Assembly (NCBI RefSeq): GCF_055900595.2
Contig: NZ_CM148325.1
Length of the DNA: 64,000 nt
Strand: one strand, 5' to 3'
Shown here: piece after piece, positions 52,501-55,500 of the stretch
Position numbering within the stretch: position 1 is the stretch's first letter
Layout of the letters: each line of letters opens with the position of its first letter
Program-made: the position numbers

Positions 52501-55500
52501 TTGCCAACCTGTCGGTACTCTTTGCAGTCGGCGTCGCCGTGGGGCTGGCGAAATCGGATAAAGGCACTGCCGGGCTTGCGTCATTGCTGGCGTTTCTGGT
52601 GATGAATGCCACCATCAACGCCTTATTAACGCTCAACGGAACGCTGGCGCACAAGAACCCCGCTTCAGTTGGCCAGGGGATGACGCTTGGTATTCAGACA
52701 CTGGAAACTGGTGTGTTTGGTGGGGTGGTGATTGGTCTCGTCACCTGCACTTTACATAGCCGTTTCAATAAAGTCTCACTACCTCAGTTTCTCGGTTTTT
52801 TTAGTGGTTCTCGTTTTGTACCCATTATCAGCTCCCTTGCCGCGATAGTAGTGGGTGCGGTTATGACGGTGGTGTGGCCGCATTTCCAGAAACTCATTTT
52901 TGGACTGGGCGACCTGGTGGATGCGACGGGCTATCTGGGGACGCTGTTGTACGGCTTCATCCTGCGTATGCTTGGTCCACTGGGTTTACACCATATCTTT
53001 TATTTGCCGTTCTGGACGACGGCGCTGGGCGGCAGTGAAATCGTCAACGGCCAGTTGGTTGAAGGTACGCAGCGGATTTTCTTTGCCCAACTTGCCGATC
53101 CGAATACGCAGCAGTTCTACGCGGGTACCGCTCGCTTTATGTCCGGGCGCTTTATCACCATGATGTTTGGCCTGCTTGGCGCATGTCTGGCAATGTACCA
53201 TACTGCAAAGCCGGAGAATAGAAAGGTTGTCGCCGGACTACTTTTGTCAGCAGCCCTGACCTCTTTCCTGACGGGAATCACTGAGCCTGTTGAGTTCTCC
53301 TTCCTGTTTGTCGCGCCCGTATTATACGTAATTCACGCCTTCTTCGATGGTCTGGCGTTTATGGTCGCCCATATTTTACATATCACTATTGGGCAAACCT
53401 TTTCGGGCGGGCTTATCGATTTCCTTCTCTTCGGCGTGTTGCAGGGGGAAGCTAAAACAAACTGGATGTATGTCCCCATAGTGGGAATACCGTGGTTCTT
53501 CCTTTACTACTTTACTTTCCGCTATTTGATTAACCGCTTTGGCTGGCTGACGCCGGGGCGTGAGAACGTAACCCAGGTTGAATCCGGCCAGCCTCAGAGT
53601 GAACGCGCAGCGGCAGTCATTGCCGGGCTGGGAGGCAAAGAGAATCTGGAAGAGGTGGACTGTTGCGCCACGCGCCTGCGCGTGACGGTTAAAGAGAGCA
53701 GTAAGGTAGATGAAGCTGCGCTGAAAGTGGCCGGAGCGCGTGGCGTGATTATTCGCGGCAACGGCGTTCAGGTGATTTATGGCCCTCATGTCACCATCAT
53801 TAAAAACGAAGTCGAAGAGATTTTATCGTAATGAAAACTGTACTGGATTCCCTGAAAGGTAAATTAATCGTCTCCTGTCAGGCTCTGGAAAATGAGCCTC
53901 TACATAGTCCGTTTATTATGTCACGTATGGCGCTGGCGGCAGCACAAGGTGGTGCTGCAGGTATCCGTGCCAACAGCGTGGCGGATATTAGTGCTATCAA
54001 AGAGATTGTCTCCCTTCCGATGATAGGGATTATCAAACGCGATTACCCTGGCAGTGAGGTGTTTATCACGGCCACTCTCCGGGAAGTGGATGAGCTGATG
54101 ACCGTTGAGCCGGAAATTATTGCCCTGGATGCTACTGCGCGCCCGCGCCCTAGTGGTCAGACGCTGGAAGAACTGGTCACGCAGATCCGCGCTCGCTACC
54201 CGTCCATACTTCTGATGGCAGATATAGCAACAGTAGAAGAGGCAGTGACAGCTGAACGTCTGGGTTTTGACTGTGTGGGCACTACGCTCTACGGCTATAC
54301 CGCAGAAACTGCTAGGCATGTGCTGGCGGAAAATGACTGTGGATTCTTACGTGAGGTCCTGAAAGCGGTCAGCGTTCCGGTCGTGGCGGAAGGGAATGTC
54401 GACACCCCGGAGTGCGCCGCACGTTGCCTGACATTAGGCGCTCATACCGTGGTGGTTGGGGGGGCAATCACTCGTCCGCAGCAGATAACGACACGCTTTA
54501 TCGCAGCGATCGCCTCGTAAAGCACCGATGAGGCATGATATTTTGCTGGGAATAAGCGATAATTATCGCTTATTCCATATTGAGAGTGCTATGCAGTACC
54601 CGATTAGCTCGGCAGGGGCTAAATCATGGTTATCCGGTCATGCTGCGCATGGATAATGGCTCGGAATTTAACACTCTCGCGCTGACACTGGCTGAATGGG
54701 CATAGATACTCGCAGTAAAACGAGAGCTCAGCCAGCCTGGTCGAGTTACCCCTGATAGAGGAATACTGATCCTACCCCATGTAATGTGGACACAAGCCTA
54801 AGTGATGTTCTGGTTTTCAAATTGTTCCGTACTGAGACCACCACACCAGCTGTGCCCTAACAGGCACAGTTTCAGCACTCCTAAGCAACCGTAAAATGGC
54901 ACCAGTTTCACAAGCAATTGTGCTCATTATTATTGCTATAACAAAAACCTTTTTTTCTGATGAATGAATTATTAATATAATTCTGATCAAACACCTGTTT
55001 TTTTAACCTACAGAAGGAGTTATTATGAAAAAATACTCTTCTCCCGTCCTTGCACTCATTCTTGTTAGCAGCAGTATGGTATCCTCCGCTGCCACAAAAG
55101 AAATCTCAAAAACAGCTTATGTCTGTAATGGAAATAAGACAATGGAGGTGGTCTATATCAACACCACTGCTGGGAACTCATATGCAGTGATTAATCAGAT
55201 GGATGAGATGATACCTATGCAGCTTATGAAAATGGCCTCCGGAGCCAATTACGAAGCCATCAATAAAAGATACTCATATAAACTGTACACAAAAGGGAAA
55301 AAAGCCAATCTGGTGGAAGGGAATGATAATCCTGTCTTAAGCAACTGTTCATCGGCCGAATGACAGCCATCGTGCTAACCGTGATATTCTGCTGACTTAA
55401 CCTGTTTACCATTCTGTGTAAATGCCTTTTCTTTAAAGTGACCGTCAGGACGGTCACTGATTACCCATTCTGAATTCAGTGCAGAATTAAAATATGTGTG

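Follow-up and report, generated by a model that had tools for sequence, protein, structure and literature searches.

The closest described relative of the locus analysed here is Salmonella enterica PliC (PliC-St, 3OE3; SEN1802 in Enteritidis). This protein was obtained from periplasm by purification on a lysozyme column, its signal peptide is predicted to span 24 aa, and its gene is universal in sequenced Salmonella genomes (PMC2267010). Knock-out of Salmonella pliC led to loss of inhibitory activity and to sensitivity towards lysozyme when lactoferrin was present (PMC2267010), and survival in egg white is reduced by its deletion (PMC6137255). The MliC proteins of E. coli (YdhA, 2F09) and Pseudomonas aeruginosa (PA0867, 3F6Z) belong to the same Pfam/COG3895 family and are lipoproteins anchored to the outer membrane on its inner side (PMC2267010). 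The barrel of MliC/PliC proteins is stabilised by a conserved Cys pair (PMC2267010). The YxxxTKG motif has been defined, and the equivalent Ser and Lys mutated, in SliC (PMC6033465); both residues are needed for inhibition by SliC, and their equivalents in P. aeruginosa MliC contact lysozyme (PMC6033465; PMC8334348). A more distant relative, Brucella abortus PhiA (7DPY), forms an 8-stranded, disulfide-containing barrel like that of MliC/PliC proteins; it is a tetramer without the SGxxY motif and does not inhibit lysozyme (PMC8334348).

The usual inhibitor set of E. coli comprises Ivy, MliC and PliG, and a few genomes have pliC as well (PMC3458809). In 2012, Vanderkelen et al. drew attention to homologs of pliC in two E. 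coli genomes and suggested the extra PliC as a possible source of the residual periplasmic inhibitor activity of APEC CH2 (PMC3458809); our literature search, aimed at functional work on PliC from E. coli and at a named pheU island carrying the gene, returned only this remark. The physiological relevance of periplasmic inhibitors has been questioned, as Ivy, MliC and PliG were not recovered as lysozyme-resistance determinants in ExPEC screens (PMC5955474).

Here we describe an ORF within a 64,000-nt stretch of contig NZ_CM148325.1 (assembly GCF_055900595.2; hereafter the window) that very probably encodes an E. coli ortholog of Salmonella PliC, a periplasmic inhibitor of c-type lysozyme acting by the mechanism proposed below. 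The ORF is intact, running on the + strand from an ATG at 55025 to a TGA at 55361-55363, and specifies 112 aa. The gene is not a discovery, because RefSeq already annotates the exact protein (WP_000760916.1) as 'c-type lysozyme inhibitor'; E. coli PliC is already known by homology and is correctly named by standard annotation. The features of the gene and its product are as follows.

55014..55019, + strand: Shine-Dalgarno sequence AAGGAG, read from the sequence; strong, 5 nt before the pliC ATG
55025..55363, + strand: pliC-like coding sequence from the ORF list; 112 codons plus TGA
55025..55090, + strand: predicted Sec-type signal peptide MKKYSSPVLALILVSSSMVSSA, aa 1-22, without a lipobox cysteine; putative cleavage site at its end
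55091..55360, + strand: mature PliC, 90 aa, 9.9 kDa, pI 8.56; predicted 8-stranded antiparallel beta-barrel
55124..55126, + strand: Cys34 codon, half of the conserved disulfide pair; invariant among 19 homologs
55238..55252, + strand: SGANY, aa 72-76, the SGxxY loop; S72 is the counterpart of the serine contacting the lysozyme catalytic residues
55277..55297, + strand: YKLYTKG, aa 85-91, matching YxxxTKG; K90 is the counterpart of P. aeruginosa MliC K103
55346..55348, + strand: Cys108 codon, the other half of the disulfide pair; nearly invariant among 19 homologs and conserved in 3OE3

The initial annotation had proposed a candidate MliC/PliC-like inhibitor with SGxxY and xKG motifs arranged as in that family, and had suggested a Pfam search and a fold prediction as checks. 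The motifs are arranged as claimed, and the Pfam MliC profile (PF09864) matched above threshold (46.4 bits, E=4e-12, profile positions 1-66 of 67; gathering score 22). Family comparisons support the proposed identity and refine it to the periplasmic PliC type. The protein also matched the NCBIfam equivalog NF010363 'c-type lysozyme inhibitor' (PRK13791) over profile positions 12-112 of 113 (156.5 bits, E=2.4e-46; cut-off 127), and Salmonella PliC in the PDB (3OE3) with E=7e-40, 64 of the 89 mature residues being identical (72%). As sequence matches, all three lie far beyond chance. MliC proteins resemble the island protein in their barrel fold and in the SGxxY and TKG lysozyme-binding motifs, whereas their sequence similarity is very low (PliC family profile versus 3F6Z, E=4e-4; versus 2F09, E=1.8). 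The latter value bears out a further claim of the initial annotation, that this protein is distinct from the core inhibitors.

We aligned 19 homologs from six genera or groups (Escherichia, Klebsiella, Salmonella, Proteus, Morganella and Pasteurellaceae). S72, G73 and Y76 were invariant, as were Y85, K86, L87, Y88 and G91, with T89 and K90 nearly so. The SGANY stretch aligns to ASGAKY, and YKLYTKG to YIWWTKG, in the complex of P. aeruginosa MliC with HEWL (3F6Z). Residues 70-76 read MASGANY, with Met in place of the first Ser of SxSGAxY exactly as in Salmonella PliC, and the MKMASGANYEAI and YKLYTKGK stretches are identical between the two proteins. The Salmonella protein further shares the mature length of 90 aa, the cysteine pair, and a predicted Sec signal peptide likewise lacking a lipobox.

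At the N-terminus, MKKYSSPVLALILVSSSMVSSA|ATKE is built like a Sec signal peptide, with positive charge in its N-region, a hydrophobic core and the junction SSA|A. In the alignment with 3OE3, residue 1 of the mature Salmonella chain falls on residue 23 of the island protein. A search of residues 1-35 with the lipobox expression [LVI][ASTVI][GAS]C gave no match; the protein has just two cysteines, C34 and C108, and hence none ahead of C34. Because the signal peptide lacks a lipobox, we assign the protein on sequence grounds to the periplasmic PliC subtype rather than to the lipoprotein MliC subtype, and its location is predicted to be soluble and periplasmic. The AlphaFold2 model has eight strands and a mean pLDDT of 79.8, with block means of 84-93 across residues 31-110 apart from one block at 79. 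The best Foldseek matches of this model were the chains of 3OE3 (target-normalised TM 0.92-0.96; rmsd 0.9-1.5 Å), so that the island and Salmonella barrels agree at about 1 Å; further matches were PhiA (TM 0.80-0.84), the MliC-HEWL complex 3F6Z and Brucella PliC 4MIR. The predicted fold is thus that of the MliC/PliC 8-stranded barrel, in line with the expectation of the initial annotation, with the Salmonella PliC crystal structure as its best structural match.

A second allele, also called 'c-type lysozyme inhibitor', is found on plasmids of E. coli and Salmonella, 32 of 66 of which were typed as conjugative. Alignment of the window with one such plasmid (NZ_CP027551, encoding WP_025263478.1) delimited a module around pliC, whose leader also contains a possible promoter element.

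54865..55388, + strand: pliC module of about 520 bp (leader, coding sequence and about 25 bp), from the pairwise alignment
54976..54981, + strand: tentative candidate -10 element TATAAT, read from the sequence in the AT-rich leader of pliC

The homology ends on both sides of this module, and megablast matches to plasmids were confined to query positions 186-688, equivalent to 54885-55387 of the window. The plasmid allele has the same length, with 88.5% protein and 88.8% DNA identity, and shares the motifs and the conserved 140-bp leader, yet it lies on another replicon beside other neighbours (PerC-family and HTH regulators), its signal peptide has diverged and has a cysteine absent from the island allele, and its mature protein is less basic. 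Its Shine-Dalgarno hexamer is AAGGTG, one base changed from that of the island copy. The GC content of the module is 38.4%, against 49% for the window. As the plasmid-shared homology begins only about 160 bp upstream of the ATG, pliC behaves as its own module. We regard it as island cargo consisting of this one gene together with its leader. That pliC forms one operon with the PTS and N-acetylmannosamine-6-P epimerase genes upstream of it is unlikely, as 504 bp separate them.

A consensus-based promoter scan called no promoter-like site at 54710-55025 upstream of pliC. The TATAAT hexamer lacks a good -35 element and reads TATAAC in the plasmid allele, and is weak evidence for a pliC promoter. 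The sole terminator-like site found by the terminator scan was on the minus strand within the pliC coding sequence, at about chance level, and a hairpin at 55437-55458 was rejected as a pliC terminator for want of a U-tract on the + strand, the regional folding energy (z = -0.75) being unremarkable. No convincing promoter or terminator thus came out of the scans, and expression of pliC is putative.

The initial annotation had placed the gene on an island, and the wider window confirms this.

17078..17153, + strand: tRNA-Phe (pheU position), found with ARAGORN; left-end attachment site of the pliC-carrying island
17351..18613, + strand: island tyrosine recombinase/integrase gene adjoining tRNA-Phe, from the ORF and the RefSeq annotation of the GPEC389 region

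The GPEC389 region at the integrase is 99.9% identical to the window and has the gene order dcuA-cutA-dsbD-dicD-tRNA-Phe-integrase, with the island ending at cadC; in near-identical genomes the island lies between dsbD-yjdC(dicD)-pheU and cadC. Within it, pliC lies about 38 kb from the insertion point at tRNA-Phe, in IS-rich accessory DNA that follows the integrase. The island is horizontally acquired and heavily decayed, with many IS elements and pseudogenes. The neighbours of pliC are a sugar PTS/epimerase operon and a gene for a YadA-like adhesin, which is split by an IS in the window. A short ORF at 54580-54705 has the look of an IS-transposase fragment and gave no Pfam match.

Among 5426 complete E. 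coli genomes, 174 (about 3%) carried pliC and 5420 the flanking dsbD segment. Full-length intact copies at at least 99% identity were present in 147 records, and truncated copies occurred in a few genomes. In a sampled listing 34 of the 52 chromosomal carriers were labelled chicken, poultry or avian, a raw enrichment, and the carriers listed included APEC BEN2908 and several O78 APEC strains. Comparison of the island and plasmid alleles gave a dN/dS of 0.11 for the mature part and 0.59 for the signal peptide.

Our demonstration covers the pliC gene, its family, predicted fold, motifs, selection, island location and distribution. By analogy with characterised homologs, and with Salmonella PliC as the one protein of the pair whose activity has been demonstrated, the island protein would be exported, form its disulfide, bind lysozyme and protect the cell, and its biochemical activity would serve evasion of host defence. 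In the mechanism that we propose, the precursor would be exported via Sec and cut by signal peptidase I after Ala22. Once in the periplasm, the 90-residue mature protein would adopt its 8-stranded beta-barrel fold, secured by a disulfide between C34 and C108. Agents such as lactoferrin, complement or cationic peptides could breach the outer membrane and let host c-type lysozyme of the hen egg-white or human type into the periplasm, where PliC would bind it at 1:1. Peptidoglycan hydrolysis would be blocked by insertion of the SGANY loop, with S72, and of the YKLYTKG region, with K90, into the active-site cleft. With pliC on the pheU-integrated island, carrier strains would thus add a third inhibitor of c-type lysozyme to the core pair Ivy and MliC. 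Both ivy and mliC are Rcs-regulated in E. coli.

A different target for the same fold is unlikely but has precedent. The protein could restrain bacterial peptidoglycan-cleaving enzymes, either the lytic transglycosylases and autolysins of the cell itself or the muramidases of competitors and phages, with inhibition of host lysozyme being incidental. Ivy inhibits lytic transglycosylases, and some authors have proposed this as the true role of Ivy, MliC and PliG (PMC5955474; PMC10746161); PhiA, a structural match of our model, has been proposed as an inhibitor of the autolysin SagA. PhiA, however, lacks SGxxY and bound neither lysozyme nor SagA in vitro (PMC8334348), whereas the island protein retains SGANY and YKLYTKG, and given the presence of SGxxY we reject a PhiA-like non-inhibitor. 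Salmonella PliC, moreover, was isolated through its binding to lysozyme and its deletion gave sensitivity to lysozyme and egg white. No peptidoglycan hydrolase gene lies beside pliC, and an accessory single-gene module found on islands and plasmids is ill-suited to a housekeeping control role.

Doubts may also be raised about where the protein resides and whether the gene is active. It is scarcely credible that the product is an outer-membrane-anchored lipoprotein of the MliC type, although the matching Pfam family bears the name MliC and homologs go under 'membrane-bound inhibitor' in some sources. No lipobox occurs in residues 1-35, the only two cysteines are those of the barrel pair, the signal peptide ends where the mature chain of periplasmic PliC-St begins in the alignment, and the PliC family profile reaches E. 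coli MliC only at the E=1.8 given above; as the protein has neither lipobox nor signal-peptide cysteine, we reject this assignment. We also consider it improbable that pliC is silent or decaying cargo, left over without expression on a degraded island and no longer serving any function in the strain. The IS elements and pseudogenes, the IS-split adhesin gene next door, the failure of any promoter or terminator near pliC to pass the scans and the truncated copies elsewhere are all consistent with such decay, but the ORF itself is intact behind a strong Shine-Dalgarno sequence, the 147 full-length records are nearly identical, the leader is conserved, and the dN/dS of the mature part relative to the plasmid allele is low.

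No new mechanism or family is revealed by the island pliC. E. coli is usually credited with three lysozyme inhibitors, to which about 3% of complete genomes add PliC as a fourth, encoded on a mobile island or a plasmid; this gene is accessory, in contrast to the core mliC gene of E. coli and to the universal pliC of Salmonella. Strains chosen for knock-out work on lysozyme evasion should be checked for pliC, which also bears on a small question in APEC, the source of residual periplasmic anti-lysozyme activity.

The two orthologs differ in charge. Mature island PliC is basic (pI 8.56, net charge +1.8) and Salmonella PliC acidic (pI 4.76, net charge -3.2), and this reversal could lower the affinity of the island protein for highly cationic lysozymes. 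Taking charge and distribution together, we put forward as a speculative, and on balance doubtful, proposal that a charge-reversed PliC (mature pI 8.6 versus 4.8) has spread in poultry-associated E. coli, that it could be the extra periplasmic c-type lysozyme inhibitor behind the residual anti-HEWL activity of APEC CH2 and the restored virulence of its ivy mliC double mutant, and that it might have altered affinity or specificity. If true, such a change, for example towards avian lysozymes of egg white or serum, would make PliC a host-niche fitness factor.

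The putative lysozyme inhibitor that the initial annotation had proposed at 55025-55363 coincides exactly with an intact 112-codon reading frame, whose small product (MKKYSSPVLALILVSSSMVSSAATKEISKTAYVCNGNKTMEVVYINTTAGNSYAVINQMDEMIPMQLMKMASGANYEAINKRYSYKLYTKGKKANLVEGNDNPVLSNCSSAE) carries the proposed SGxxY and xKG motifs as SGANY and YKLYTKG. No promoter was definable for pliC by sequence scans and comparison with a plasmid allele, and no terminator by scans of the region and a folding check.

55014-19, + strand: Shine-Dalgarno-like AAGGAG, 5 nt ahead of the pliC ATG
55025-55363, + strand: pliC, intact in the ORF list, 112 codons, stop TGA
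Residues 72-76 of the pliC product: SGANY motif
Residues 85-91 of the pliC product: YKLYTKG motif

The product matched nearly the whole Pfam MliC profile (PF09864; 46.4 bits, gathering score 22; E=4e-12) and the NCBIfam equivalog NF010363 'c-type lysozyme inhibitor' (156.5 bits, cut-off 127). The nearest solved structure in a PDB sequence search was 3OE3 (E=7e-40; identity at 64/89 mature residues), labelled in the structure library as PliC-St, the periplasmic inhibitor of c-type lysozyme of Salmonella Typhimurium. An AlphaFold2 model using a homolog alignment as input had eight beta-strands and a mean pLDDT of 79.8, with the signal peptide as the low-confidence part. Its first Foldseek matches in the PDB were the 3OE3 chains (target-normalised TM 0.92-0.96, rmsd 0.9-1.5 Å), followed by Brucella PhiA, P. 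aeruginosa MliC-HEWL, Brucella PliC and Neisseria ACP proteins, so that an MliC fold is indeed predicted. Both profiles, 3OE3 and the modelled fold support the suggested membership of the PliC/MliC-like inhibitor family.

This family holds both periplasmic members (PliC) and lipoproteins (MliC) (PMC2267010; PMC3458809). No lipobox was found in a sequence check of the island product, C34 and C108, the barrel pair, are its sole cysteines, and residue 23 pairs with residue 1 of mature PliC-St in the 3OE3 alignment. Predicted cleavage after SSA22 would yield a mature protein of 90 residues (9.9 kDa), the length of mature Salmonella PliC. Together these features indicate a protein of the PliC type; the absent lipobox and the cysteine content exclude a lipoprotein at the sequence level. 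By profile comparison the protein is also clearly not a copy of core E. coli MliC (YdhA, 2F09), which the family profile matched only at E=1.8, and its claimed distinctness from the core inhibitors is thus borne out for MliC.

Across 19 homologs from E. coli, Klebsiella, Salmonella, Proteus, Morganella and one Pasteurellaceae bacterium, residues C34, S72, G73, Y76, Y85, K86, L87, Y88 and G91 were fully conserved and T89, K90 and C108 nearly invariant. The profile of this alignment matched P. aeruginosa MliC as present in its complex with lysozyme, 3F6Z (E=4e-4), pairing ASGANY with ASGAKY and YKLYTKG with YIWWTKG. S72 and K90 are the counterparts of P. aeruginosa MliC S89 and K103, and inhibition by gonococcal SliC needs the residues equivalent to these two (PMC6033465); in MliC/PliC-lysozyme complexes the SGxxY serine touches the catalytic residues of lysozyme (PMC8334348). 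Salmonella PliC was isolated from the periplasm using immobilised lysozyme, and a knock-out strain no longer showed inhibitory activity and was sensitised to lysozyme once lactoferrin had permeabilised the outer membrane (PMC2267010); deletion also lowered survival in egg white (PMC6137255). Because the characterised homologs act in this way and the stretches around S72 and K90 are kept, being identical in Salmonella PliC, the island protein would be expected to be exported by Sec, to place its barrel in the periplasm and to plug the active site of any c-type lysozyme that crosses a damaged outer membrane.

Charge is the sole feature that sets the island PliC apart from its characterised ortholog. 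The mature protein (55091-55360) is basic, with a computed pI of 8.56 and net charge of +1.8, whereas Salmonella PliC is acidic (pI 4.76, net charge -3.2), a gap of about five charge units. Most other family members are acidic too, the pI of Salmonella PliC and most members being 4.6-5.1. All charge-altering substitutions relative to Salmonella PliC lie outside the two lysozyme-binding motifs. As lysozyme is strongly cationic, the basic charge could alter affinity for this enzyme.

A diverged pliC allele (88.8% DNA and 88.5% protein identity) occurs on E. coli and Salmonella plasmids, in 66 plasmid records of which about half (32) were typed as conjugative.

NZ_CP027551 (IncF plasmid), 8142-8480: plasmid pliC allele, adjoining a PerC-family regulator and HTH regulators; homologous island segment at window 54865-55388

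In pairwise alignment, island-plasmid homology was restricted to approximately 54865-55388, comprising a leader of ~160 bp, the CDS and ~25 bp 3' of the CDS, which indicates that pliC moves as a module of one gene, with a GC content of 38% versus 49% for the window. The dN/dS between the alleles was 0.18 overall, and the low value over the mature part (0.11) relative to the signal peptide (0.59) shows that the barrel is under purifying selection. In the NZ_CP027551 allele the signal peptide includes a cysteine (..LTSTCMTASA..), which is missing from the island allele. A related sequence, P0010 (..LAGACMTASA..), would match a loose lipoprotein pattern, and hence some plasmid alleles might be lipidated.

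This selection, together with the conservation of pliC, makes it unlikely that the gene is silent cargo. Alternatively, the real role of PliC may be the control of bacterial peptidoglycan hydrolases, a function put forward for Ivy and also considered for MliC and PliG, but such a role is hard to square with a gene that is accessory and mobile and forms a module by itself, and with a product whose motifs are specific to lysozyme. A PhiA-like inactive barrel is excluded by the SGxxY motif. Sequence, model and homologs instead support a PliC-type periplasmic inhibitor of c-type lysozyme carried on the pheU island. This finding is correct yet already known by homology and annotation, since RefSeq names the exact protein (WP_000760916.1) 'c-type lysozyme inhibitor' in every genome inspected and Vanderkelen et al. 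recorded pliC homologs in two E. coli genomes and suggested an extra PliC as a possible source of the inhibitor activity left in the periplasm of the O78 strain APEC CH2 (PMC3458809). Our literature search found no paper testing the E. coli PliC protein.

Of 5426 complete E. coli genomes, 174 (3.2%) contained the pliC CDS, with 147 matching records at least 99% identical, and 5420 contained a neighbouring core segment, dsbD, used as control. All 28 plasmid-borne copies among the matches were the diverged allele (a megablast repeat gave 22 copies). When the two match lists were sampled at even intervals, 34/52 genomes with chromosomal pliC had a chicken, poultry or avian label versus 9/60 dsbD controls (Fisher p = 6e-8); enrichment in poultry-associated E. 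coli is suggestive only, because these raw counts take no account of clonality or of strains sequenced more than once. APEC BEN2908 is among the carriers, as are several O78 APEC genomes. The dsbD segment of the window (15000-15339) was at least 99% identical in only 9/5420 genomes and the island DNA was 99.3-99.9% identical to islands of several chicken isolates, a combination consistent with an island that has spread horizontally and entered a chromosomal background that is uncommon.

The island is inserted at the pheU position, and the claim that pliC is island-borne is upheld by a tRNA-Phe gene with an integrase, IS-rich DNA and core flanks (dsbD-dicD and cadC) in strain GPEC389, whose corresponding region is 99.9% identical.

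17078-17153: tRNA-Phe (ARAGORN)
17351-18613: integrase gene, 3' of tRNA-Phe
22689-24188 and 43796-45223, - strand: two phosphoethanolamine-transferase genes
33118-36942, - strand: S6-family serine-protease autotransporter (SPATE-like), 1274 aa, adjoining an AbgT-family transporter gene
55748-56203, - strand: sigma-70 region-4-like HTH protein, 151 aa, sole domain Pfam Sigma70_r4_2 (E=2e-7)
56265-56798, - strand: membrane-anchor part of a YadA-like adhesin
57117-57443 and 57440-58330, + strand: IS3-family ORFs
58370-58990, - strand: head/stalk part of the YadA-like adhesin

The left end in GPEC389 reads dcuA-cutA-dsbD-dicD-tRNA-Phe-integrase, followed by the IS-rich island with cadC at its far end. 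The first part of this island encodes an AAA protein, phosphoethanolamine transferases, PhoX, the S6-family autotransporter protease and transporters, and then come a MurR/PTS/epimerase cluster, pliC, the sigma-like HTH protein, a YadA-like adhesin and CP4-like genes. The segment from ugpB through MurR-PTS-epimerase-pliC-HTH-YadA-like recurs in APEC BEN2908 and in two human isolates, one from urine and one from stool.

One phosphoethanolamine transferase is intact (499 aa) and the other is N-terminally truncated according to RefSeq in related genomes; both could have a role in lipid A modification and cationic-peptide resistance. The YadA-like trimeric autotransporter adhesin gene (56265-58990) is split by the IS3-family element in the window, is uninterrupted (1359 bp) in GPEC389, F11 and 2009C-3133, and is broken by another IS, ISEc12, in strain Ch1. 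The sigma-like HTH gene keeps its position between pliC and the adhesin gene in all islands inspected, and its product could regulate the adhesin. A perfect, GC-rich 9 bp hairpin (GUGACCGUC-loop-GACGGUCAC) lies at 55437-55458, 75 nt 3' of the pliC stop. A U-tract is absent from the + strand, and the - strand has just a weak tail rich in U/A. As the hairpin falls outside the plasmid-shared module, it may serve the convergent sigma-like HTH gene.
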